The notes under the pieces are model-generated. The model worked only from the letters and a program-made list of their open reading frames with translations. It was not told where the DNA came from and did not search any database. Of a DNA stretch of 64,000 bases, positions 40,915 through 54,851 are shown one piece after another. The stretch is from contig OZ252299.1 of NCBI GenBank assembly GCA_965250285.1, forward strand, positions 4,768,001 through 4,832,000. Reading direction: 5' to 3'. The translations under genes and the position numbers were made by a program. Every line of letters begins with the position of its first letter. Position 1 is the stretch's first letter. Source of the stretch: Myxococcota bacterium (GTDB lineage: Bacteria; Myxococcota_A; UBA9160; UBA4427).

Positions 40915-43900
40915 TCAGGCGCGCCGGCGCTCGGTCCGAGGGCGAGCCTCGTCTTCGTCGTCTCGGTCGTCTTCGTCGTTCTCGACGGCCGCCTCGTCGA
41001 GCATCGATGCGAGATCGCTGTTCGCTTCGCCTTCGAGCGCCTCGACGTCGCGCTGCTCGCGCCGATTCGCGCGGCGTGCACTCTCGGAGACGGCCAGCAC
41101 CGCGAGCGGATCGACGCGGCTCCACACCGGCAACGCCGACACTGCGATCGCGAGCAGCGAGGTGCCACGGGTGATCATCGCCAGCACGGCGGCCGAGAAG
41201 GCCAGCCCCGTGCGCTCCACAGCCCTGACCTTGACCTCGATCTCGTCCTGCTGCCGGTCGGCGGTCTCGCGCAGCTGGGTTTCGACGTCGTGCAGGGCAT
41301 CCTGCAGCTGCGCGTCGGCGAAGCCCGCGGCCAGGCGCGAGGCCTCGTCGATGTCTTCCTCGTCATCGTCGCGCGTGAACGAGAGCAGGCTCCCCGAGAG
41401 ATCGCCTTCGGTCGACCCGATCAAAGGCACGTTGGCGCTCTGAGAGATCGAAACGCCATCGAGTTGCGCCGCGTCGGAGCCCGCACCGGCATCCTCCCTG
41501 GCGAGCGGGTCGAATGCCGGGCCCGTTCGCAGGAGCGTCGTCTCGTCTTCGCCGATGCTGGTGTTCGACGTGTCGTCGTCGAGTGTCACCTCGTCGTCGG
41601 TGGGCTCTTCGGCGGTCTTCTCGTCTTCGGCTTCGGTCGGCTCGTCCTCGCTCGACTGCTTCTCGTCCTCGGGCTCGGACGCGTCCTCGTCATCGAGCGG
41701 ATCGACCGCAATGGGCGCCACCTCGATCGATACCGACGACTGCCCTGTGAGCGGCCCCCCCGCGCCCACGCCCCCGAGATCATCGACCGCGAGCGACATC
41801 GTCACCGTACCGGACGGAATCGCCAGCGCGGTGAAGGCCGCACCGTCGAGGGCCGTGTTCACCTGCGACAGCGTGCCCTCGAAGCGCATGTGCGCATCGG
41901 CCACGCCATCCCCTTCCAGAAAGTGCAGGCCTGCCGTCGAGCCGAGGCTGAGCTCACCCGCAGTGACCGACAGCGTGACCTCAACCAGTCCGTCCCCGGC
42001 GTCGAGATCGCCGATCGCGATCGCGTTCACGCCCGCTGACGAAAAGGTGATCGTCTCACCCGGCGCCAGGGTCTGTCCGGAAGGCATCGATACCCAGGGC
42101 GACTCGTTCGCATCGAGCAGGTGGACCGTCACGTCGGCCTCGGTCTGCAGGCCCCCGTCGTCCGTGACACGCACGCGAAGTACGCGGCTCCCGACCGTCT
42201 CGTGGTCGAGAGCCGCCCCGTCGACAACGCGCAGTTCACCCGTCCCGGAGCCGAGGCTGAAGGCCCCATCACTGTTGCCCGACACGATCTGGTACGACAA
42301 CACGCCCGAGCCATCGGGGTCACTCGCAGCCACCGTGCCCACGAGCGACCCCGCCACCGGCCCTTCGAGCAGATCGAAGGATTGATCGACGAACGCTGCG
42401 GGTGTGTTCGTGGCGACCACCCCGACGGTCGTCGTCGCGACCGTGCTCGGATCGGAACCGTCATCGACGACGAATCGAATCAGGCGGTCCGTCGTCGTCG
42501 GGTCGAGCGACGCGTTGTCGTAGGTCACCGTTCGGAGCACCTGCTCGAAGTCGGCCTGGGTGCCAGAACCATCGAGCGTCAGCATCCGCGAGCCGGCGTC
42601 CCAGGTCGCGTTCAGCGCGGTGCCCGTGACGTCCGCCGAGAGCGCCTCGAGGGCGCCATCGGGCATCGCGTCGACCGTGATGCGGATCGCGACGGGCACG
42701 TCGCCGTCGATGTCGGTGATCGACGCGTCCGAGTCGGCGACCGCGACCGGGCCGAGGCCCTCGGTGAAGCTCGCCTGGTAGTCGAGCCCGGCGCCCACGT
42801 CGTCGTTCGCGTCGAGATCGAGCACGGGAGCGTCGTTCTCGGGTGTGACCGTGATCGCGAAGGTCGCCGACCCGCTCGACCAGACGTGTCCATCGTTCAC
42901 ACTGAACTCGAACGAGGTGTCTCCGTTCCAGTCGGCCGGCGGCTCGTACGTCAGCAGGCCCGCATCGATGTCGAGTCTCGAGATCTCGTCACCCACCGAC
43001 ACCGCGCCACCCGAGAGGAGCAGGCCGCCGACCGGGAGCGAGTCGATGCGCACGCGATCGATCGAGTCGCCGGCGTCGGGGTCGGTCCCCCCGATCGAAA
43101 CGACGACCGAGCCATCCTCGGGCAACGACGTAGTGCCCGGCGTCGCCGTGGGCGCCGAGTTGGCACCGTAGAGCAGACCGACCTCGAAGTGCGTGAGCGC
43201 GCGGTCGTAGACGCGCAGATCGTCGATACCGCCCGTAAACTTGTACTGATCGCGGCCCGTCCGGTCACCGCCGATGTTGAGATGGTCGCTGACCGCAACG
43301 GGTCCCACGACGTCGGTGGCCGTCGCCACCGCCACGCCGTCGACCCACAGCGTCATCGTCGTGCCCTCGCGGTGTACGACGAGGTGGTGCCAGGCGCCAT
43401 CGTCGAGGTCGTCGAGGTAGATGCCGGTTTGCCACTGCTGCGATCCGTTCTCGAGATACGAGACGAGCTGACGATCGGGCGTTTCGTCGAACTGCAGGTT
43501 CCAGTGGTTGACCGAGCCGGTCGCGTTGGTCGCGGTGTAGATCCCGGCCCAGTCGTTCTGCACCGGGTCGGGGCGAATCCAGACCGATGTCGTGTAGTCG
43601 CCGGCGAGCACGGGCACGTCGCCCGAGCCCGTGACGATCATGTCGTCGATGCCGTCGGGATCGAACGCGTGCGAGCCGACCTGCCCCGGCACGAACTCGT
43701 CCCCCTCGCCCCCCTGGAGCGTGCCGTCGTAGCCGCCGGGACCGTCGTCCGTGGCGTCGCCGTCGAACGTCCAGTGCCCGACGAGGCTGGTCACCGTGGC
43801 CGTGAGGGATTGCGTCGTGCCGTCGTAGACGACCTCGGCCTGCGTCCGGTTCATGATCGACGTGGCGAAGCCGCCGTCCTCGACGTCGAGCGCGCCGAGT

Positions 43901-45129
43901 GCTGCATCGACGCGAAGGGTCCCGTCGAAGCCGGCGCCGGCGTCGAACACCTCGAGATCCCCGGTGACCTGGACGTCGGCCGTGGTGATCGAAGCCAGCA
44001 CGAGCTGGCCGACGTCGGCCTCGAGCGTCATCGCACCCGAGGGCGCACCGCCGACGTGGACGCTGCCGATGCGACCGCCCCCCCCGCCCACGACCACGCG
44101 ATCGACCGTCGCGCCGGCCTCGACCGTCAGGCTCGAGACGTCGGCGTCACTCGAGAGCTCGGCGAGATCGGCATCGAAGCGCAGCGTGCCGACGACGAGG
44201 CCCCCGTTCAGATCGCTCAGCACGACTCGGGTCGAGTCGTCGGTGCCCGCCGAGCCCGAGATGCTGAGCGTGTCGCTCGCGCCGTCGTAGCTGAAGTCGA
44301 TCGTGCCCGGCCCGGTCACGTCGATGCCGAAGCGGATCGCGCCATCGTCCCACGTGCCGGAGCCCGAGAACCCGGCCTCGCCGTGATCGACGAGCTGACC
44401 CGACCAGGTCTCGAGCGCCGCGGAGACGAGGCCCGTCTCGGCGACCGCGTCGTCCGCACCGCTCGAGGCCGCCTCGAGGATCCAGTCGCCCCCGCGACCC
44501 GTGACGTCGTCCGATGCGAAGACGTCGGCGCCCGTCAGATCGGCCACGCGATCGAGCAAGGCCTGCCCGGACACGACGTCGCCCGCGACGTCACAACCGA
44601 AGAACGAGATGTCGGCGCCCGAGACGAGGTGCGCGGAGAGATCACGCCAGGCCTCGGCGTTGGCTTCGCTCATGTCGGCGGTCAAGCCGCCCGGACCCCA
44701 AGCGACGCGCCCTTCCGAGCCATGCGTCAGTACGGAGAGCGATGCGATCGGCTCGCCGAGCGAGCCGGCGAGACCGCGCACCTCGGCCAGCACCTGCGTG
44801 ACGTCCTCGCGGTCGGCATCGAAGAGCACGAGCGTCGCGCCCGCATCGACCGCGCCGGCGAGCACGTCGACGTCTTCGAGATTGCGATCGATCAGGACGA
44901 TGCGCAGGCCGTCTTCGCCCGACTTCGGAGCGTCGGCGGTCTCCGGTGAGACGGGCGGATCGAGGTCGACCGGATCGCTCGGCCAGACCGGCGCCGGAGC
45001 TTCGACGTCGTCGACGCCGGGATCGACGAGCCAAGGCGCGACGTCCGCCGAGTAGAGTCGACGGCGCTCGAGCTGTTCGATGTGACGCGAGGGCGAAGCC
45101 TCGCTCTGCGGTCGATCGCGCCGTCTCAA
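40915..45129 (-). CDS. Large acidic surface/secreted protein: LEPR-XLL-like N-motif, DUF4347, LamG, Ig/cadherin repeats
   Basis: EQLERRRLYSAD; THGSEG...FFGCDVA...TGADVFASDDVTG.GGDWILE; LVGHWTFD...WHHLV...GGIDDLRVYDRAL; NSAP/NDAP/SDPDG cadherin-like motifs. Confidence 0.88.
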   Translation of the reverse strand: MRRRDRPQSEASPSRHIEQLERRRLYSADVAPWLVDPGVDDVEAPAPVWPSDPVDLDPPVSPETADAPKSGEDGLRIVLIDRNLEDVDVLAGAVDAGATLVLFDADREDVTQVLAEVRGLAGSLGEPIASLSVLTHGSEGRVAWGPGGLTADMSEANAEAWRDLSAHLVSGADISFFGCDVAGDVVSGQALLDRVADLTGADVFASDDVTGRGGDWILEAASSGADDAVAETGLVSAALETWSGQLVDHGEAGFSGSGTWDDGAIRFGIDVTGPGTIDFSYDGASDTLSISGSAGTDDSTRVVLSDLNGGLVVGTLRFDADLAELSSDADVSSLTVEAGATVDRVVVGGGGGRIGSVHVGGAPSGAMTLEADVGQLVLASITTADVQVTGDLEVFDAGAGFDGTLRVDAALGALDVEDGGFATSIMNRTQAEVVYDGTTQSLTATVTSLVGHWTFDGDATDDGPGGYDGTLQGGEGDEFVPGQVGSHAFDPDGIDDMIVTGSGDVPVLAGDYTTSVWIRPDPVQNDWAGIYTATNATGSVNHWNLQFDETPDRQLVSYLENGSQQWQTGIYLDDLDDGAWHHLVVHREGTTMTLWVDGVAVATATDVVGPVAVSDHLNIGGDRTGRDQYKFTGGIDDLRVYDRALTHFEVGLLYGANSAPTATPGTTSLPEDGSVVVSIGGTDPDAGDSIDRVRIDSLPVGGLLLSGGAVSVGDEISRLDIDAGLLTYEPPADWNGDTSFEFSVNDGHVWSSGSATFAITVTPENDAPVLDLDANDDVGAGLDYQASFTEGLGPVAVADSDASITDIDGDVPVAIRITVDAMPDGALEALSADVTGTALNATWDAGSRMLTLDGSGTQADFEQVLRTVTYDNASLDPTTTDRLIRFVVDDGSDPSTVATTTVGVVATNTPAAFVDQSFDLLEGPVAGSLVGTVAASDPDGSGVLSYQIVSGNSDGAFSLGSGTGELRVVDGAALDHETVGSRVLRVRVTDDGGLQTEADVTVHLLDANESPWVSMPSGQTLAPGETITFSSAGVNAIAIGDLDAGDGLVEVTLSVTAGELSLGSTAGLHFLEGDGVADAHMRFEGTLSQVNTALDGAAFTALAIPSGTVTMSLAVDDLGGVGAGGPLTGQSSVSIEVAPIAVDPLDDEDASEPEDEKQSSEDEPTEAEDEKTAEEPTDDEVTLDDDTSNTSIGEDETTLLRTGPAFDPLAREDAGAGSDAAQLDGVSISQSANVPLIGSTEGDLSGSLLSFTRDDDEEDIDEASRLAAGFADAQLQDALHDVETQLRETADRQQDEIEVKVRAVERTGLAFSAAVLAMITRGTSLLAIAVSALPVWSRVDPLAVLAVSESARRANRREQRDVEALEGEANSDLASMLDEAAVENDEDDRDDEDEARPRTERRRA

Positions 45130-45250: not shown

Positions 45251-46756
45251 TCAGCTTGCGTCTTCGTCGCCTTCGACTTGCTCGAAGCCCGTCACTCGGT
45301 TGCGTCCCGTCTGCTTCGAGACGTAGAGCGCCTGGTCGGCCTGGTCGACCAGGGTGTAGAGGCTGTCGGCGCCGTGTTCGCGCAGGCTCGCGAGGCCGAA
45401 GCTCGCCGTGATCGGCACGGCCGCGAAGCCGTCGGCGCCGATGCTGCGACGCCAGCGCTCGGCCATCGAACGGGCCTCTTCGGGCGACATCCCGGGCAAC
45501 AGGACGCAGAACTCCTCACCGCCGTAGCGGCAGACACGCTCGCCGTCGGGTGACTGACTGAGCAGAGCGGTCGCCACGGCTCGAATGACTTCGTCGCCGG
45601 TCTGGTGACCGTGGTCGTCATTGACGCGCTTGAAGTGATCGATGTCGACCATGACGCAGCAGAGGTCGTCCCCTCGACGCTGCGCAGCCTCGACCTCGAT
45701 CTCGCCGGTCTCGAGGAAGCTGCGGCGGTTCGCCGCACCGGTGAGCGGATCGCGCCGCGCGAGCACCCGAAGCTCGTCGTTCTGCAATCGGATCTCGTCG
45801 CGCGACTTCTCGAGCAGCGCGAGGGCGTTCTCCAGCTCGCGGCTCTTGGCCTCGAGCTGGGTGATGTCGTCGAAACTCGCGATCGCCCCGCGCATCTTGC
45901 CGGCCCCGTCGAGCACCGGTGCGCCGTTGACCATGAAGGTGCGCACTTCGTCCTCGTCCCGCAGACACAGCGCGGCGCCCGTCGTCGTCGACTGGTCGGC
46001 GAGGGCGTCGTTCCACGGCATCGAGCGTGCCGGCTCGAACGAGCCGGGCACGAGCCAACCGAGCCCCGACGCCTTGCGCCCGACGAGCTTCTCGCTCGAT
46101 TCGCCGACGCGCTCGGCGAACGCGCGGTTCGCCAGCACGATGCGCTCGCCCCGATCGACGAGCAGCACGCCCTCCGACATGAGATCGAGGGCCGCCTGGA
46201 CGCGGGGGGGAATGACCGACGAAGGGTCGAGATGTCGAAGTGTTCGCCGCAGATACAGCGCGTACGCGACGAAGCTCGCGACCCCGAAGACCAGCACCAG
46301 TCGCACGACGGGACGGTGCCAGAGCGAAGCGACGAACGAGGCCGACACGGGCTCGACGAAGCGCACCTCGAGCGTGGCCCACGGCGCACCGCCACGCGTC
46401 AGCTCGACGACGATGTGCGTCAGGTTCGTGCCGGGTTCGACGTTTTCGTCCCACAGCGCGCGGTGCTGCTGGCTCGCGACCATCAATCGGCCGTAGCGAT
46501 CGCGCAGGCCCACCGAGAGCACGTCGTCTTCGGCCTCGACGGCGTGGTCGAGCTCGACCCGCAACCGGGCGAGCCCGGCCCTCGAAGGGTCGGTCGTTGT
46601 ACGCATCGCCAGCTGCTCGACGATGCGCGATCGGCGCTCGACGACCGGATCTTCACTGATCGGGACCAGGCCGAGCAGATCGAGGCCGAACAGGATCGAG
46701 ATGGTCAGGCAGACGAGGCCGAGGGAGAGACGAAAGAGCGCGGACCGATGCCACAT
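45251..46756 (-). CDS. Membrane diguanylate cyclase (2 TM, PAS, GGDEF)
   Basis: DPLTGAANRR, DIDHFKRVNDDHGH, RYGGEEF, ADQALY. Confidence 0.93.
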   Translation of the reverse strand: MWHRSALFRLSLGLVCLTISILFGLDLLGLVPISEDPVVERRSRIVEQLAMRTTTDPSRAGLARLRVELDHAVEAEDDVLSVGLRDRYGRLMVASQQHRALWDENVEPGTNLTHIVVELTRGGAPWATLEVRFVEPVSASFVASLWHRPVVRLVLVFGVASFVAYALYLRRTLRHLDPSSVIPPRVQAALDLMSEGVLLVDRGERIVLANRAFAERVGESSEKLVGRKASGLGWLVPGSFEPARSMPWNDALADQSTTTGAALCLRDEDEVRTFMVNGAPVLDGAGKMRGAIASFDDITQLEAKSRELENALALLEKSRDEIRLQNDELRVLARRDPLTGAANRRSFLETGEIEVEAAQRRGDDLCCVMVDIDHFKRVNDDHGHQTGDEVIRAVATALLSQSPDGERVCRYGGEEFCVLLPGMSPEEARSMAERWRRSIGADGFAAVPITASFGLASLREHGADSLYTLVDQADQALYVSKQTGRNRVTGFEQVEGDEDAS

Positions 46757-46766
46757 GGCGCCCTCG

Positions 46767-47843
46767 TCAGTTCATGCCGTGTCGGTGATCGCCGGCGTCG
46801 GGCACGAAACGCACCTGGCACCGCAGACCACTCGGAATCGCATGGTCGGCGTTCGGCAGCTCGAGCCAGACGCCAAAGGTGCCACTGGTCGGATCGACGA
46901 CCCGGTCGGCGATCTCGACACGCGCGAGCTGGACTCCGAGCTCGGGGAGCTCGGGCGAAACCTCGGCGACCATCCCGGCGCGGATGCGCCCGAACTCGCT
47001 CGCGGGCACGATCACTTCGACTCGCAGCGGGTCGATCTCGGCGACGGTGAGCAGCGTCTCTTCGCGCGCGATCTCGCCGGGCAGCTTGAGCTGCTCGACG
47101 ACGACGCCGTCGATCGGGCTGCGGATGATCCTGCGTTCGAGACGAGCACGCGCCTCATCGAGCTCGAGCGTTCGCAAGCGCTTCAGGTCGCGCGCCTGTT
47201 CGAGCTCGGCGCGCGCCAGAGCCGCCTCGGTGCGCGCCTCTTCGGCGACGTCGATCGAGACGACCGATTCGGTGTGCAGGTTGGTCGCGCGGCGTAGTCG
47301 GCTCTCGCCGAGCGCGAGGCTCGCGGCGCGTGCGCGCACCGAGCTCTGCATGTTCGCGCGCGCTTCGGCGACGGAGACCGCGGCGCGCTCGACGTCCGAC
47401 TCGAGCTCGACCAGGACCTGGCCGGCCTTGACCTCGTCGCTGCGGTCGACGTGCACCGATTGAACGACGGCCGAGAGCGCGCTGCTGACGTCGATCACGC
47501 GCCGAGGCTCGATTAGGCAATCGAACTCGCCCCCGACGCTCGACGCGGCTGCCATCGACCGATGCGGCACGGGCTCGTCTTCGGCGAGCACCTCGTCGCT
47601 CCAGTTCGGTGCGATCGAAGGCGCCGGGTCGACGGCCGCGGGCGGCGTCGTATCGCTTTGCGCACTCGCCGTCGACGGCGGTGCAGCGGCCACGCGCCCG
47701 GCCGGGGCCTCGCTCGCCGAGGCCGGCTTCGAGGCGAGCAGGGTCGACGGGCTACGATCGACCAGATTCATGCTGACGAGCGCGACCAGCGCAGCGACGA
47801 GCAGGATGCCCGCCGTCCTTCGCGCCCACCGGCTCTTCATCAT
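46767..47843 (-). CDS. Periplasmic adaptor (HlyD/RND MFP family)
   Basis: N-terminal TM; CLIEP, VKAGQVLVEL, RSPIDGVV, IDPLRVEV, VVDPTSGTF. Confidence 0.87.
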   Translation of the reverse strand: MMKSRWARRTAGILLVAALVALVSMNLVDRSPSTLLASKPASASEAPAGRVAAAPPSTASAQSDTTPPAAVDPAPSIAPNWSDEVLAEDEPVPHRSMAAASSVGGEFDCLIEPRRVIDVSSALSAVVQSVHVDRSDEVKAGQVLVELESDVERAAVSVAEARANMQSSVRARAASLALGESRLRRATNLHTESVVSIDVAEEARTEAALARAELEQARDLKRLRTLELDEARARLERRIIRSPIDGVVVEQLKLPGEIAREETLLTVAEIDPLRVEVIVPASEFGRIRAGMVAEVSPELPELGVQLARVEIADRVVDPTSGTFGVWLELPNADHAIPSGLRCQVRFVPDAGDHRHGMN

Positions 47844-48080
47844 GTGCAGTCGCACGCTCAGCCCCGCCTCTGCCAGATCGACGCAGATGGAACACGCATC
47901 GATCTCGCACTCGGTCGGACGCTCCGACAGCGTCCACGGCCTTATGTTTCGGTCGACCGGTGGCTTGACCCAAGCCGAAGCGCGCGCCGACGAACCGAAC
48001 GAAGAGCGACCTCGCGCATGCGCAAGAGACACGCAGATGTGATGCAGATCGAGCGCAGGGATCGGGCGGTGTGGAGCGGT

Positions 48081-50243
48081 TCAGACGTCGAAGTGACCGA
48101 GGAAGAGACGAGCGAGGCTGCGGCCGATGCGCGGGGCCAGCGGCAGCTGACCGTGATCGAATCGAACGAAGACGCGCTCACCGATCGCAACCTGTTCGGG
48201 CTGCTCGGCGAGCTCGACCTCGAGCAGGAAGACGGGCTCGAGCGCAACGGTCCCGGCCTCATCGTTCGGATCGATGGCGAAGGGTCCCCCACCCAGCGTG
48301 CCCAGGGCTGCGCTGGGTAGATCGGTCGTCGCTGCCGGCACGGCCCGTACGAGCCGCGCGGCGCGGACGCGGCCGAGGCTGCCCGCCAACCGAAGCTCGA
48401 TCGCGTCGGTGCGCTGCCGCACGTCTTCGATGGCGTGCTGGGGGACGGCGACGCGCGCCGTGACGGCCCCGGCGCCGACGACGTGGCCCAGCAGCTCACC
48501 CTGGCGAACCATGCGGCCAACGGGATCGAGCGCACCGGCGAGGAGAAAGCGCCCGGCGCCCGGGCTTCGCACGACCAGCGCATCGCGACGCGCCTGACCG
48601 AGCGCCCGCTCGGCTCGCACCGTGTCGAGTTCGGCCTCGGTGGTGCGTGCACGAACGAGGTCGTCGGCCCGCTCGGCGAACATGCGCAGCTCGAGCGCAT
48701 CGATGCGTGCATCGAGCACTGCGAGCTCGGCGTCTAGGAGCGGCTCCTCGAGCACGAAGAGCGGCTGCCCTTCGATCACTTCTTCTCCCGGTGCCACCTG
48801 TTGTCGCACGATCAGCCCATCGACCTCGGCGCGCACCTGCGCACGCTCGGGCGGCCAGACGACACCCTGAGTGCGAGAGTGGAAGGGCAGCGGCAACGCG
48901 AAGAGCAGCACGGCAGCGAGCACGACCGCAGCCGCGGTGATCGAGACCGCACGCACGCGGCCGGCAGAGAGTCGCGGACTCGTCGCGACGAAGGCGAGAC
49001 CCCGCGCCAGCGGCAAACCGATCTGAAGACCGATCGTCAGCGCCGCAATCGCCACGCCCACGATGGGCAACGTCGTCGCAACGAACCACCCGATGCTGAT
49101 CCCGAGCACGACGCGATAGATGGCCGATGCGATGCCGTAGGCGATGAGCCAGGGGCGCTCGCTCTCGGTGTCGACGGTCGCGCGCACGTCGGCGAGACCG
49201 AAGACGCGGCGCTGAATCGATCCGATCAGGTGGGCGGACGCTCGCTGCTGCAGATTCGGAATCTCGAGCGCGTCGGCGAGCGCGTAGTACCCATCGAACT
49301 TGAGCAGCGGATTCGCATTGAAGAGCAGCGTCGACAGCGTCCCGATCCAGATCATCTGGAGCGCGATCGCGCGAACCCAGCCATCGGCCACCGAAGACCA
49401 GACGAAGAACGCGATCGCGGCGAGCGCGAGCTCGGCGGCGATCCCGGCGAGACTGACCACGATGCGACGCGTCTTGTCGGGCAGGATCGACACGCCCGAT
49501 ACGTCGATGTACGGCAGCGGTGCGAAGACCAGGAAGGCGAGGCCGGTCTCTCGAACCTCGACGCCGCACACCCGAGCGGCGCACCCGTGCGCGAGCTCAT
49601 GCAGCGCCTTCGCGAAGACGTAGACGAGCGGCAGCACGAGCCAGCCGCCCCCGCCGAGCAGTCGCGTCGGCAGATCGTGGGCGAGCTCGGGCCACACCGG
49701 GATCGAGGCGAGCAGCGCCGTCACCACGAGCAGGGCCCAGAAGAACGCGCCGCCGCGCGTGAAGATCGGCGCTGCGAAAGGCGCGATGCGTTCGAGCAGG
49801 GGGTCGGGGTCGAACAGCGGCACCTTGATCGACAGCGGGCTCAGCAAGCGCATCCAGCGCTGCTGGCCACGTGCGCGGCGACGCTCTCGAAACATCGCTT
49901 CGAGATCGGGGGATACGTCGAGCGACAGCACGTGGGCGCCCTGCAAGAGGCCGATCACGTGCATGGCTTCGGCACGCGACGGCGCGGCCTCCCCGAGCTC
50001 GTCGGCGCAGGCGGTCCAGGCCGCTTCGATGGTGCAGCGCCCATCGAGGCGTGCGACCAGGTTCCAGGCGGCCGCCGAGATGCGATGGCAATCGCCGCGC
50101 ATCGGGTCACGGAGCACGATCCAGCGGCGCCCGCGCACCCGATGTCGCGTCGGCGTCGCCTCGTCTTGCAGGCGCGGCCGGAGCCCACACACCCGCTCCC
50201 ACATCGCCGCATCGTCGTGGCTTCGCGTCGAGTCGGAGCTCAC
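48081..50243 (-). CDS. M50 (site-2) zinc metalloprotease fused to a HlyD-like adaptor domain
   Basis: HELAH zinc motif, NANPLLKFDGYY, several TMs, C-terminal lipoyl/hairpin region; GTGA overlap with the upstream stop. Confidence 0.88.
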   Translation of the reverse strand: MSSDSTRSHDDAAMWERVCGLRPRLQDEATPTRHRVRGRRWIVLRDPMRGDCHRISAAAWNLVARLDGRCTIEAAWTACADELGEAAPSRAEAMHVIGLLQGAHVLSLDVSPDLEAMFRERRRARGQQRWMRLLSPLSIKVPLFDPDPLLERIAPFAAPIFTRGGAFFWALLVVTALLASIPVWPELAHDLPTRLLGGGGWLVLPLVYVFAKALHELAHGCAARVCGVEVRETGLAFLVFAPLPYIDVSGVSILPDKTRRIVVSLAGIAAELALAAIAFFVWSSVADGWVRAIALQMIWIGTLSTLLFNANPLLKFDGYYALADALEIPNLQQRASAHLIGSIQRRVFGLADVRATVDTESERPWLIAYGIASAIYRVVLGISIGWFVATTLPIVGVAIAALTIGLQIGLPLARGLAFVATSPRLSAGRVRAVSITAAAVVLAAVLLFALPLPFHSRTQGVVWPPERAQVRAEVDGLIVRQQVAPGEEVIEGQPLFVLEEPLLDAELAVLDARIDALELRMFAERADDLVRARTTEAELDTVRAERALGQARRDALVVRSPGAGRFLLAGALDPVGRMVRQGELLGHVVGAGAVTARVAVPQHAIEDVRQRTDAIELRLAGSLGRVRAARLVRAVPAATTDLPSAALGTLGGGPFAIDPNDEAGTVALEPVFLLEVELAEQPEQVAIGERVFVRFDHGQLPLAPRIGRSLARLFLGHFDV

Positions 50244-52066
50244 CACCAGCTCCACGCGCCGAGTCGGAGCCAATCGATCAGGCGATGCGTCGCGATCCAG
50301 AGCAGCGGCCGGTCGCCCGCGTCGAGGCGCGCGATGCCCTCCATGCCGGGGCGCAGCCGGTCGTCGGAAGCAAAGGAACCAACGGGGTCGGCCACGAGCT
50401 CGGCCTCGACGCGGAAGTGGTTGCGGCCCCCCTCGGCGACGGTCACTGGCTGAATGCGCGCGATCCGCAGCGGCAGCGGCTGCGCGGGGAGCGCCTGCAG
50501 CTTGAGGTGGCCGAGTCCGCCTTCGGCGATCGCGGCGACGTCGCGCTCGTCGACCTCGAGAATGATCCGATAGCCCCCGCGCGGCGCCAGCTCGAAGAGC
50601 ATCTCGCCGCGCTCCACCGGCGAGCCCAGTCGCTGGGAGAGATCGCCGGCGACCACGACGCCGTCGAACGGGGCCACCAGCGACGTTCGGGCCAGGCGCG
50701 CCTCGACGAGGGCCTGCTCGGCAGCGGCCTGTCGCATCCGGGCGCGCAGGATGCTCGCCTGGCTGCGGTCATGCCGCGCGAGCGCCTCTCGAAACTCGCC
50801 CTCGAGCTCGGCCAGCCGAGCGTCGCCCGTCTGCTGTTCGAGCCGCAGGTCGCGATCGTCGAGGCGAGCAAGGATCTGCCCGGCCTGCACGATCTCCCCC
50901 GCACGCACGTGCGCTTCGGCGACGAAACCGTCCATGCCTGCGACGATGGCCCGCTGCACACGTCCTTCCAGACGCGCATCGGCGCGGACGCGGTACGAGA
51001 CCGGCAGCAATGATGCAAAGAAGATCAGCGCGATCGTCGCATACACGCCGACCTTGAGTCGCGTGTGTCCAGGCCCGAAGAGCGCTTCGACGAACGCATC
51101 GAAGTCGTCGAGGCATCGACGCCAGATGCCGCGCTCGGCTCTTCGCGCGAGCAGAAGAGCGGGGCCGACACGACGCGCCGCGAGCTCGCAGAGGCGTCGG
51201 GTCGATCGATCGCTCGCGGCACCGGCCGGCGCCTCGAAGGCGAACGCGCAGCGCTCGCCGTGTGATTCGACCGGCACACTGAAGACGTCGCACGCGCTCG
51301 ACGTGCGTTGCCACGCGCGGTGCGCCCACGGCCGCACCGGCGCGACTTCGTCGCTCGCATCATCGTCGGCTTCGCGCGCGTACGCGGCGAGAGGCTGCCC
51401 CGCATCCATCGACTCTTCGACGGCCGCGCGCCACGGCTGCAGCCAGCGTGCGCCGCGATCGAAGTCGAGGCCGTTGGAGACCGCGATGACGCGGGCCGAT
51501 GCGTCGTCGAGCACGAAGAACCCTGCGCGACTGCACGGCGTCATCGCGACGAGGCGCGCGAGCGCACCGGTCGCCGACTCTTCCAGCGTCGCGCCCGATC
51601 GAGCAGCCTCGAGCACGGCGTCGGCTGCGTTCGACTCGGCGACCCGCGCGCCCGCGTCTCGCAGTGCGTACAGCCAGGCGCCCTCGGCGCGCAGCGCCTC
51701 GCAGACCCGCTTGATGCGATCCTCTGCGTTCGCCTCGTCGCCTGGATCGAGCTCGACGGCAACGACGAGCGCGGGCTCGGACTCGCTCGCCGGAGGCCCT
51801 GCACCTCGGTTGGCGGCACGATCGACCGGGACCCCGACGAGCGCAATGCGTTCATCGTCGCCGACGCGCAGCGACCGCACGACGCGGCGGCCATGGCGCG
51901 CGGCCGACTCGGCCGTCTCTTGCAGCCTCGGCTCGACCGGTGCGTCTTCGGGCCAGCACACGAGGACGTCGGGTTCGCCCGGCGCGGGCCACAGCAGGCA
52001 GGCCGAGCGCACGCCCTCGAGCGTGTCGCAGCGCCGACCCAGCCACCCGCGAATGTCGTCGCGCAC
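50240..52066 (-). CDS. GAF-like domain + HlyD family adaptor protein
   Basis: N-terminal GAF-like region, one TM, AGMDGFV...VRAGE, APFDGVV.GDL, LRPGMEG; GTG 52066 after GGAGGGG. Confidence 0.82.
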   Translation of the reverse strand: MRDDIRGWLGRRCDTLEGVRSACLLWPAPGEPDVLVCWPEDAPVEPRLQETAESAARHGRRVVRSLRVGDDERIALVGVPVDRAANRGAGPPASESEPALVVAVELDPGDEANAEDRIKRVCEALRAEGAWLYALRDAGARVAESNAADAVLEAARSGATLEESATGALARLVAMTPCSRAGFFVLDDASARVIAVSNGLDFDRGARWLQPWRAAVEESMDAGQPLAAYAREADDDASDEVAPVRPWAHRAWQRTSSACDVFSVPVESHGERCAFAFEAPAGAASDRSTRRLCELAARRVGPALLLARRAERGIWRRCLDDFDAFVEALFGPGHTRLKVGVYATIALIFFASLLPVSYRVRADARLEGRVQRAIVAGMDGFVAEAHVRAGEIVQAGQILARLDDRDLRLEQQTGDARLAELEGEFREALARHDRSQASILRARMRQAAAEQALVEARLARTSLVAPFDGVVVAGDLSQRLGSPVERGEMLFELAPRGGYRIILEVDERDVAAIAEGGLGHLKLQALPAQPLPLRIARIQPVTVAEGGRNHFRVEAELVADPVGSFASDDRLRPGMEGIARLDAGDRPLLWIATHRLIDWLRLGAWSWW

Positions 52067-52319
52067 TCGTTTCCCCTCCCCGGACAGGGACTTGCGCCTC
52101 TCTCTTCGGCCTGCTGACGCTGGGGATTGAGCCCGCTGCACAGGCCTCCGAGCCGGGCGGCCTGCGACCGCGCGAGCTGCCGGGATTCCACAACGCCGAG
52201 CGCCCGGCGCACCTCACCGAAACGCCTCGAAGACGCCCACCCCGAATCGAAACGGCTCGATGCGATTCCGCTCCGCCCACCCCTCTGGGCGGTCGATACG
52301 CCCTGCGAGGCAACCTGAC

Positions 52320-54851
52320 GTGACGAGCCCCATCGAAAGATCGGTCCGATCGACCACCCTCCTGCCGGTGATCGTCGCAGCGCTGGCGTGCGCGGCGGTG
52401 GCCTTCGACCTCGTCGGCGTCCACCGCGATCTGGCGGCGTTCGCCAACGCGCAGCGGCAAGCCCTGGCCCGCTCGGCTTTCGCGCTCGCCTGGGTCGAAT
52501 CGAGCGTCGCCCACGATCCCCGCGTCGTACCGAGTGGTGCCGACGCCGAACGCTGGGCACCGACGCGGACGCGTCTGCGTCAGGCCCTCGCCGAGGCCTT
52601 TCCCGAGGCGGCCGACGCCGAAGCGGTGTGGTCCGAGCGGCAGCACGCGCTCGAGAATCAGCTCGAACGCGCCTACGACCTGCGGGCCGGCGGGCAGACG
52701 GAGGTCTCCGATCGCCTGCTCGAGGACGGTTGGGACCGCTTCGTCGATACGTGGCTGCGCGCCGATCTCGCCGCGACGGTCGCCGAAGCGCTGGCCGACG
52801 CCGATGCCGCCACACACCGAGCCGAGGACGACGCCAATCACTGGCAGTCGCTCGTCACCATCGATGCCCCGGTGCTCGATGCGGCGCTGGCCGATCTTCA
52901 CCGCGCCGTCGCCACCCAGCGCATCGCGAGCGATGCGCTGCACGCAGCCCGCGACGCGCGGCTCGATGGCGCGACGAGCGAACGCGCCCGAGCGAGCCGC
53001 GATCTACTCTCGCGTCGATGGGCGCGCTTCGAGTCGGCCCGCGATCGCGTCGAGCCCGAGCGCGCCGACGCACTGCGTGCGCTGACGACCGCCGTTGCCG
53101 GTGCACCGGGCGCCCGACCCGGAGACGTGCATCAAGCCCTCGACGTCGTGCACGAGTCGATCTGGCCACTCCTGCACGCCGATGCAGAGCGACTTGGCGG
53201 GCGACTCGCCGTCGTCGAGCGCGCCAGCGCGCGCGCCGGTGCGTTCGCCATCGGCTTCGCCCTGGTCGCGCTCGTGCTCCCGGTGATCGGCCTGCTGACC
53301 GTGTCGCGTTGGCTGACGCGCCCACTCGCGCGCACGCTCGATACGGTCGAGGCGATGAGCGAGGGACGCCTCGACGATGCGCGGATGCGCGACTGGCCGC
53401 GCCCGTGGCGCGCGTTCGGCGTCGACCTCGAGCAGATCCGCGGCCGGTTGGAAGAGGCCGAGGGGCATGCGCGCGCACTGCTGCTCTACGACGCGACGAC
53501 CGGGCTCGTCAATCGACGTCACTTCACCGAGCGGCTGAACGCGAGCCTGGTCTCGGCGCGCGTCGATGGTCGAACGATGGCGTTGCTGTCGATCGGGATC
53601 GACGGTCTCGGCGGGCTGCACGAATCGCATCGCCCCGAGGAGTACGACGCGCTGCTGCGTGAAGTCGCGCAGCGTGTGTCTTCGAGCGTCCGCGTGAACG
53701 ACGTGATCGGGCACGGCGCGGGCAGCAGCCCACTGCCGGTGGTCGGACAGACGTCGGAGACCGAGCTCACGGTGCTGCTCACGAAGATCGCGGCGGGCAG
53801 CGACGCCGCCATCGTCGCCGAGCGCACCCTCGGCGCATTCGAGAAGCCGCTCGTCGTCGCCGAGCTCGGCATCGAGTGTACGGTGCAGGTCTCGATCGGC
53901 ATCGCGATCTCACCGGCCGATGGCCGCGACACCGGCGAGCTGCTGCGCAACGCACAGTCGGCCCGGGCCGCTGCACAGGCACGCGGATCGGGCACGGCGC
54001 TCTTCTGCTCCGACGCGCTCAACGCTGCGGCGTCGCGCAAGTACGAGGTGCGGCGACGGCTCGGCCGCGCGCTCGAACGCGACCTGCTCGAGCTCCACTA
54101 CCAGCCGATTCGAGACACGCGATCGGGGCGCGTCACGGCGATCGAGGCCCTGCTGCGCTGGAGCGACGTCGAGTTCGGTCCGATCTCACCCGGCGAGTTC
54201 ATCCCGATCGCCGAAGAGTCAGGCCTCATCTCGACCATCGGTCGGTGGGTGGTGCGTCGAGCGTGCGAAGACATCGTCGGCTGGCGCGAAGCCGGTCTCG
54301 CCCCGGTTCGCGTCTCGATCAATGCGAGCCCGGCGCAGCTGCACGAGAGCGACTTCGCCGACTTCGTACTCGATACGCTCGACGAGATGAAGGTTTCGCC
54401 CGAGGGCATCGAGCTCGAGATCACCGAGAGCGTGGTGATCGAGCAGAACGCGGCGACGGGTGAGACGCTGGGCCGTCTGCACGAAGCCGGCATCGGTCTC
54501 GTACTCGACGATTTCGGGACGGGCTATTCGTCGTTCTCACACCTGCGGCGGTTCCCGATCGAGCGCGTCAAGATCGACCGGTCGTTCATCGCCGAGGTGA
54601 GCGAAGGCGGTGAAGGTGCCGCGCTCACGTCGGCGATTCTCGCGTTCGCATCCAGCCTCGGGTTGCCGGTCGTGGCCGAGGGCGTCGAGACCGATCTGCA
54701 GGCCGACTTCCTCATGCAGATGGGCTGCGACGAGATGCAGGGCTATCTGATCAGCCAGGCGGTTTCACCGACCGAGTGTGCTCGCTTCTTCGAGCTCGAG
54801 AAGCCCGAAGCCGAAGCGGACAGCAGCGGCGGCGGCGAGCTCGACGACTAG
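52320..54851 (+). CDS. Membrane c-di-GMP phosphodiesterase (HAMP-like, degenerate GGDEF, intact EAL)
   Basis: IEALLRW, ELEITES, DDFGTGYSS, KIDRSF, AEGVET, QGY; the GGDEF position reads TSETE. Start approximate. Confidence 0.88.
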   Translation: MTSPIERSVRSTTLLPVIVAALACAAVAFDLVGVHRDLAAFANAQRQALARSAFALAWVESSVAHDPRVVPSGADAERWAPTRTRLRQALAEAFPEAADAEAVWSERQHALENQLERAYDLRAGGQTEVSDRLLEDGWDRFVDTWLRADLAATVAEALADADAATHRAEDDANHWQSLVTIDAPVLDAALADLHRAVATQRIASDALHAARDARLDGATSERARASRDLLSRRWARFESARDRVEPERADALRALTTAVAGAPGARPGDVHQALDVVHESIWPLLHADAERLGGRLAVVERASARAGAFAIGFALVALVLPVIGLLTVSRWLTRPLARTLDTVEAMSEGRLDDARMRDWPRPWRAFGVDLEQIRGRLEEAEGHARALLLYDATTGLVNRRHFTERLNASLVSARVDGRTMALLSIGIDGLGGLHESHRPEEYDALLREVAQRVSSSVRVNDVIGHGAGSSPLPVVGQTSETELTVLLTKIAAGSDAAIVAERTLGAFEKPLVVAELGIECTVQVSIGIAISPADGRDTGELLRNAQSARAAAQARGSGTALFCSDALNAAASRKYEVRRRLGRALERDLLELHYQPIRDTRSGRVTAIEALLRWSDVEFGPISPGEFIPIAEESGLISTIGRWVVRRACEDIVGWREAGLAPVRVSINASPAQLHESDFADFVLDTLDEMKVSPEGIELEITESVVIEQNAATGETLGRLHEAGIGLVLDDFGTGYSSFSHLRRFPIERVKIDRSFIAEVSEGGEGAALTSAILAFASSLGLPVVAEGVETDLQADFLMQMGCDEMQGYLISQAVSPTECARFFELEKPEAEADSSGGGELDD

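Follow-up and report, generated by a model that had tools for sequence, protein, structure and literature searches.

A conserved C-terminal membrane module of LEPR-XLL-type adhesins that travels with a co-encoded sensor

Background

What is the hydrophobic C-terminal segment of a large adhesin for, when its gene lies in one operon with an intramembrane protease? This question is raised by a 64,000-nucleotide stretch of a Myxococcota bacterium genome (G000; GenBank assembly GCA_965250285.1, contig OZ252299.1, positions 4,768,001 to 4,832,000), which we call the window. The adhesin is the last gene of a five-gene run on the minus strand that reads HlyD adaptor, M50-HlyD, HlyD, membrane PAS-GGDEF protein, adhesin. 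A preliminary description of this DNA took the segment to be a sorting signal paired with the M50 protease. That pairing is not supported. The presence of the motif, its gene position and its sequence tree all track the PAS-GGDEF protein, a two-helix sensor, and 24 of 40 M50-positive Burkholderiales genomes are free of the motif. We argue that the tail module is probably an inner-membrane anchor that would pack against this sensor as a co-receptor and set its activity, with both the binding and the topology inferred from sequence comparison. The argument is built on the conservation of the module, its coupling to the sensor, its transfer onto short proteins and an intact RRE-M50, all of which are directly supported.

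The adhesin and its C-terminal module

The gene has the following features (aa, amino acids; D/E, aspartate plus glutamate).
40915..45129, minus strand: adhesin-like protein of 1,404 aa with a LEPR-XLL-like leader, DUF4347, laminin-G, cadherin/Ig domains, a linker and the membrane module.
45043..45078, minus strand: degenerate LEPR-XLL-type N-terminal leader, a likely ligand of the RRE-M50.
41290..41709, minus strand: acidic low-complexity linker of ~140 aa, 31% D/E, a candidate for spanning the periplasm or the export channel.
41089..41217, minus strand: conserved C-terminal membrane module (residues 1305-1347), made of an uncharged helix, the near-invariant Arg1321, a second uncharged stretch and the invariant P-x-W-x3-D.
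40918..41088, minus strand: charged 57-residue tail beyond the module, presumably on the cytoplasmic side.

Translating 41089-41217 on the minus strand returns the 43-residue peptide quoted in the preliminary description, and it falls at residues 1305-1347 of the 1,404-aa open reading frame (ORF) at 40915..45129. Translation and composition confirm the described order of acidic linker, hydrophobic segment and charged tail on a large adhesin; the protein as a whole is 18% D/E and 5% K/R. Its top 19-residue hydropathy window lies in the segment (Kyte-Doolittle 1.78), but the runner-up, in an Ig strand, reaches 1.50, so calling the segment the only notably hydrophobic one was slightly too strong. 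Here and throughout, signal peptides and transmembrane (TM) helices were assigned by inspection and hydropathy. The start of the adhesin scores 13.3 bits against the LEPR-XLL model NF012209, below its 17-bit cut-off, with a second score of 16.3 bits. The view that the protein is not of the PEP-CTERM, RTX or autotransporter kind stands, as none of these models was matched in Pfam and NCBIfam searches.

The module is well conserved. A homolog search over 1.84 billion representatives gave 174 matches at E<=0.001, and P-x-W-x3-D is present in all 150 homologs listed (query included), 9-81 residues short of the C-terminus. A word-index search with the module returned the module alone, which is a limit of sensitivity given the 174 found in the larger search. 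An alignment of 105 rows shows no variation at P1334, W1336 and D1340 and little at R1321 (94% conserved), L1325 (92%) and P1341 (95%). The pattern first proposed, RG-x-S-LL...LP-x-W-x-x-x-DPL-x-VL, is too narrow in its strict form (5 of 105 rows), but its core, R-x3-L-x8-P-x-W-x3-D, is found in 92 of 105. Searched against the six-frame ORFs of this genome (9.9 million residues), the core pattern is found once. Neither Pfam nor NCBIfam has a model that covers it.

The earlier proposal named both RG and the LPxW..DPL residues as helix-breaking. For R-G this is weak: the G is only 53% conserved (the following G is at 70%), and the AlphaFold model (pLDDT 91, pTM 0.48) has a single helix from 1282 to 1331 that passes R-G unbroken, with a kink at the invariant Pro. 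As its membrane part the module may have two short uncharged runs of ~15 residues or, alternatively, a single ~27-residue run that buries the Arg. Over the 105 rows the uncharged run ahead of the Arg has a median of 15 residues, and the best 19-mer has a median Kyte-Doolittle value of 1.63. Small-xxx-small pairs occur at three position pairs in 77, 88 and 87 of the 105 rows, counts that carry no computed background rate.

The partner sensor

45251..46756, minus strand: partner sensor of 501 aa with TM1, a periplasmic Cache/PAS-like domain, TM2, a conserved L-D-P-S juxtamembrane motif, PAS and GGDEF.

The window sensor is of the diguanylate cyclase type; its GGEEF is intact and an RxxD inhibitory site is absent. 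Residues 32-134 of its model (pLDDT 89.5) match 3cwf_B (Z 11.6, root-mean-square deviation 2.7, 96 residues aligned). Foldseek searches with the model were dominated by cytoplasmic PAS domains, and a wide search gave one periplasmic match. No Pfam family lies over the sensor N-terminus. Searching with a profile gave 320 proteins; among the 120 listed, hybrid histidine kinases are in the majority, the remainder are mainly GGDEF proteins, and the taxa among the matches listed are Burkholderiales, Planctomycetota, Methylococcales and Deltaproteobacteria. A complex prediction for a sensor dimer (residues 1-301) with the module scored 0.01 (mark 0.32); it was made with no folded controls and weighs neither way.

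As the only matches were single weak ones (CHASE8 0.07, sCache_4 0.063), neither a LapD-type nor a CHASE8-type identity is assigned to the sensor. A divergent HAMP-type GGDEF-EAL gene lies beside the machine at 52260-54851 of the window. Relatives have a hybrid kinase and GGDEF-EAL pair divergently beside the machine (L001:2921-8092, L043, L049, L056), and a second layer of cyclic di-GMP (c-di-GMP) may be part of the system.

Co-occurrence across genomes

If the motif is a signal for the protease the two should be found together, and the same goes for the motif and the sensor. The same three profiles (motif, sensor, M50) were run over 41 relatives, 221 Burkholderiales (the order of G041) and 251 Desulfobacterota (the phylum of G042). 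The large genome searches scored the top 7-26 candidates per genome and can miss divergent motifs. It must be noted that the genomes are kin, and are not independent in the statistics.

In the Burkholderiales the motif is found in 17 genomes, the sensor in 19 and M50 in 40 (27 at E<1e-100). Every one of the 17 motif-positive genomes has the sensor, and for 20 of 23 motif matches the sensor gene is directly downstream on the same strand. The 40 M50-positive genomes divide into 16 with motif and sensor, none with the motif only, one with the sensor only and 23 with neither (Fisher p 3e-10, computed over non-independent kin). The two sensor-only genomes of the full set of 221, G204 and G256, turn out on inspection to have a divergent motif immediately upstream of the sensor. 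Among the 41 relatives the motif is in 11, the sensor in 10 and both in 9; M50-HlyD is in 16, with motif and M50 shared by 10. The motif-only relatives G004 and G009 are assemblies of 910 and 500 contigs, and the adhesin of the sensor-only G038 is cut by a contig end. G019, G020, G025 and G026 have M50 but no motif, even with a broader profile. The Desulfobacterota give 3 motif and 3 sensor matches, pairwise adjacent in the same 2 genomes. Of the 7 with a close M50, 6 are without motif and sensor and the motif is found in 1.

Locus annotation gives the same picture. Motif-bearing systems carry a homolog of the window sensor's N-terminus and motif-less systems do not. A scan of metagenome loci found 2, each with the motif and a sensor kinase. 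A pattern search of 27 loci around M50-HlyD relatives found a giant ORF ending in the motif at 5, and many of the others stop before the end of the adhesin.

The converse relation is also informative. M50-HlyD is somewhere in the genome for 16/17 motif-positive Burkholderiales and 10/11 motif-positive relatives. The idea of a C-terminal membrane-type module of no curated family on M50-HlyD substrates is thus borne out, as an adhesin-borne motif is seldom seen without the machine. The machine, in turn, often occurs without the motif. Genomes with motif-less machines hold LEPR-XLL giants of 8,000-26,000 aa, and the ends that were inspected differ from the motif. Because scoring the top candidates could miss divergent motifs, the C-termini of giants in G100, G230, G236, G146, G020, G019, L006 and L024 were inspected directly, and the motif is in none of them.

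Those ends have features of their own. Giants of G100, G236 and G146 close with a shared-looking I-D-W/F element (L096:2872-19998, L101:2-12874, L105:1-11133), possibly a second class of C-terminal module. Others close with a short Gly/Ala-rich hydrophobic stretch and a basic tail (L006:1-6345, L024:3-7103, L061:7087-12642, L098:4744-19998), perhaps a third type of anchor. LEPR-XLL frames in these genomes include G230:C1:5987114 (25,859 aa), G100:C1:1893490 (10,327 aa) and G100:C1:2506229 (12,249 aa).

These counts bear on the possibility that the module is a CTERM sorting signal of the classical kind that belongs to the M50, with cleavage and transfer onto a surface anchor, and that the sensor's presence is incidental. 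CTERM signals have a signature motif, then a TM helix, then a short basic cluster at the very end. The module resembles PEP-CTERM, GlyGly-CTERM and MYXO-CTERM in its C-terminal position on surface proteins, its hydrophobicity and the proximity of an intramembrane enzyme, here a protease encoded in the operon. It differs in that the order is reversed, with the signature residues after the helix and not before it, and in that the tail is long (9-81 residues) and often acidic. It also co-occurs with a sensor nearly one-to-one, and not with the enzyme. No CTERM family was matched by the 105 members (Pfam/NCBIfam, E<=0.1) or by the window protein. A match to a curated model, the order motif-helix-basic and genome-by-genome pairing with an enzyme were each looked for and not found. 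We regard a CTERM signal as very improbable.

Sequence tracking

Co-occurrence can be followed down to the sequence level. We assembled 28 triplets of motif, sensor and M50, of which 7 were joined across contigs or distant places by taking the only copy or the best one; loci where the M50 is missing or ambiguous are not among them. Distances in the motif correlate with those in the sensor (r 0.73, partial 0.74, with 0 of 5000 permutations as high). They do not correlate with those in M50 (r 0.14, partial -0.18, p 0.95). Omitting the distant G061 changes the correlations little. The main clades are common to the motif and sensor trees, and the M50 tree mixes these clades. In the subtype of the window the sensor is ahead of the adhesin or in a divergent operon, ~4-22 kilobases from the motif and sometimes beyond the M50.

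Short forms

The module is not confined to adhesins. At three Burkholderiales loci it is found on proteins of ~200 aa that, by inspection, have a basic-hydrophobic-AxA start, and that carry two invariant Cys and a Pro/Ala linker. The homolog search lists 15 such proteins, with a start that is like a signal peptide and no leader. Their module aligns with that of the adhesins (hhalign probability 95%, E 3e-8). In the family of G256 the short form is present in 14 of 28 genomes. The sensor-GGDEF gene is directly downstream in 12 of these 14, and the other 2 end at contig edges. We suggest from their layout that short forms are membrane anchors with the N-terminus out and the C-terminus in. No Pfam domain is listed for the two-Cys family, and an ESM Atlas look-up of one short-form protein gave no usable match. 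The two invariant Cys flank a D-G-x-G core (L084:2146-2928, L078:106-1242, L134-L145), and several copies are frameshifted or bear stops.

The preliminary description named occurrence apart from M50-HlyD genes as telling against its pairing, and here the answer is split. The short forms do stand away from M50, but an M50 match is present elsewhere in 11 of the 14 genomes. G256, G138 and G534 have none. The loci of two of these are broken, which leaves G256 as the sole case that is intact and M50-less genome-wide. It has no LEPR-XLL match and one SecA.

In another conceivable scenario the module is no more than a tether for the adhesin, and the sensor regulates adhesin expression from the same cassette with no contact between module and sensor. 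A hydrophobic helix after a long acidic linker does fit a tether, and adjacency alone can account for the co-occurrence and part of the tree match. However, a tether has no need of an invariant P-x-W-x3-D. The sensor is also absent from 23 of 24 machines with motif-less giants, and is kept with a module that sits on a 200-aa protein without adhesin domains. We therefore find a passive anchor improbable.

The export machine and its leader

46767..48032, minus strand: HlyD-type periplasmic adaptor, by domain matches.
48081..50273, minus strand: fusion of PqqD/RRE, M50 site-2 protease and HlyD, with HELAH at 49587-49601 and NANPLLKFDG at 49290-49319, both intact.
50240..52141, minus strand: second HlyD-type adaptor with a long N-terminal region, in the position of GAF-HlyD in the published locus; Pfam GAF is not matched in this copy.

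If the tail is not the partner of the M50, what is? There are three HlyD-domain genes at the locus and one carries Peptidase_M50. The catalytic motifs HExxH and NxxPxxxxDG are invariant in 12/12 aligned M50-HlyD proteins, and a PqqD/RRE domain precedes them in 11/12 (match to the PqqD structure 3g2b, E 3e-4). The best NCBIfam match of the M50 is the daptide intramembrane peptidase NF041824, over residues 33-420 (E 1e-44, 153 bits, cut-off 300). The daptide peptidase MpaP is RRE-dependent and takes off an N-terminal leader, according to the parts of PMC10036551 used here. The LEPR-XLL leader accompanies the machine with or without the C-terminal motif. Because the RRE-M50 resembles a daptide leader peptidase, and because the leader co-occurs with the machine regardless of the tail, the N-terminal leader appears the likelier M50 substrate.

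Even so, the M50 might have a second role. The module could bind the sensor and also be cut by the M50 after load or export, freeing the adhesin and switching the sensor, which would recast the proposal of the preliminary description as a signalling scheme. The protease is catalytically intact in every aligned copy, and the adhesin-borne motif has M50-HlyD in 16 of 17 genomes. Arg1321, conserved in 94% of the 105 rows, is lost from the short, M50-unlinked forms. Most short-form genomes (11/14) have an M50 match elsewhere, and two of the three exceptions are broken loci. Mildly hydrophobic stretches of another kind close some motif-less giants, and the M50 might thus accept a loosely defined C-terminal substrate. 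On the other side, 24 of 40 M50 genomes manage without the motif and its sequence does not follow that of M50 (partial r -0.18). The RRE indicates an N-terminal leader, and the AlphaFold model is unbroken at R-G. Weighing these, we consider regulated intramembrane cleavage unlikely.

The machine of the window is unusual. A secondary SecA sits between M50-HlyD and HlyD in relatives, and none was found here, either between the two genes (48032-48081) or in the whole genome. This genome has a single SecA, encoded by a frame of 1,037 aa that has a metal-binding tail; extra copies are present in G001, G007 and G034. Five TolC-type genes are present, all away from the locus. The window M50 is on a long branch. 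With no secondary SecA, a long M50 branch and a degenerate leader, the local system may therefore operate without a motor of its own or be drifting. At one other locus (L006:14962-16263) a group II intron reverse transcriptase lies between the machine's secondary SecA and HlyD genes.

Proposed mechanism

We propose that the adhesin would be exported N-terminus first via the HlyD/M50 machine, with the RRE likely binding the LEPR-XLL leader and the M50 likely removing it. Export would halt at the tail helix. The helix would remain in the inner membrane, which would place the charged tail inside and the acidic linker across the envelope. There the helix and P-x-W-x3-D would touch the sensor, either at its membrane helices or at the L-D-P-S juxtamembrane segment. 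Whether the anchored adhesin is present, under load or lost would then alter diguanylate cyclase output here, and kinase output elsewhere, which amounts to outside-in signalling through c-di-GMP.

Several points weigh against this scenario. The whole case is comparative. The membrane-spanning topology is not certain because the uncharged run is short and only moderately hydrophobic. A substrate of a type-I-like channel that leaves a helix in the inner membrane has no explanation. Co-transfer of a cassette could yield the tree match with no contact, because the motif and sensor genes usually abut. An adjoining sensor is missing for 3 of 23 motif matches in the Burkholderiales and for 2 of 11 motif-positive relatives, which are fragmented assemblies. 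Arg1321 is replaced by His or Gln in the short forms, and for that reason it may serve the export machine. The local system may also be altered, as the secondary SecA of relatives is absent.

A wider reading is possible, and we offer it tentatively. The giant leader-exported adhesins of several phyla could be adhesion receptors that pass the force of attachment, through an unfolded linker lying in the export channel and the helix left in the inner membrane, directly to a dedicated cyclase or kinase, with the helix moved onto small periplasmic proteins for other inputs.

Comparison with known systems

LapA is a large adhesin kept at the envelope by an N-terminal periplasmic module, and in the LapA/LapD/LapG system c-di-GMP signalling runs inside-out to a protease. 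The adhesin described here is likewise large, and a terminal module would keep it at the envelope and link it to c-di-GMP. It is unlike LapA in having a hydrophobic module at the C-terminus, and its signalling would go outside-in.

There are other functional parallels. In the parts of the sources used here, a surface-structure protein binds a membrane kinase by its single membrane helix in PilA-PleC (PMC7196804, which also cites PilA-PilS), and PilO binds the cyclase SadC through a small-xxx-small motif (10.1101/2020.10.17.343988). Binding of this kind connects contact with a surface to c-di-GMP. The module resembles both in that a helix-bearing surface protein is coupled to a dedicated membrane sensor, here by a putative interaction, and in its small-xxx-small pairs. 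It differs in that a giant adhesin bears the helix as its C-terminal end and the sensor belongs to a co-encoded family with a swappable output (GGDEF or hybrid kinase). This is a comparison of how the systems might work; the module is a member of neither and no homology is claimed.

The machine itself has a published counterpart. The main text of Kamneva, Poudel and Ward (2015, PMC4452313) describes a secondary SecA_DEAD locus with three HlyD-type genes, one fused to Peptidase_M50, and no ABC transporter, for which a role in secretion was proposed. That text names no substrate, C-terminal motif or cadherin, and the sections of it that were examined contain no such sensor. The window locus shares the three HlyD-type genes with one fused to M50, but has no secondary SecA in the genome, and its TolC-type genes are elsewhere. 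Its M50 is like MpaP, as described in the parts of PMC10036551 cited above, in that an RRE is fused to the N-terminal side of an M50 intramembrane protease. Unlike MpaP it is a fusion with HlyD and serves giant proteins, not precursors of ribosomally made peptides that are modified after translation (RiPPs), and leader cleavage would have to carry over.

Significance

How bacteria sense attachment is an open question, and most work on it has dealt with pili and flagella. In the present system a giant adhesin is accompanied by a sensor of its own, and its short invariant module lends itself to mutation one residue at a time. Two uncatalogued domains are added, one the tail module and the other the N-terminal part of the sensor, and no description of the module was found in the literature searched, which did not extend to subscription papers and supplements. 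The two-by-two co-occurrence test, the tree comparison and the short forms are new in this analysis. They sort the 2015 secondary SecA locus into two likely pairs, leader with protease and tail with sensor. Cognate and non-cognate motif-sensor pairs coexist in the single genomes G035, G062, G174 and G413 and can be swapped. The short forms are a minimal two-gene system that could be expressed in E. coli.

Other observations

Other large acidic proteins of the Myxococcota genome (G000:C1, near 860131, 3941446 and 4139580) close with a classical helix and basic tail, unlike the module.

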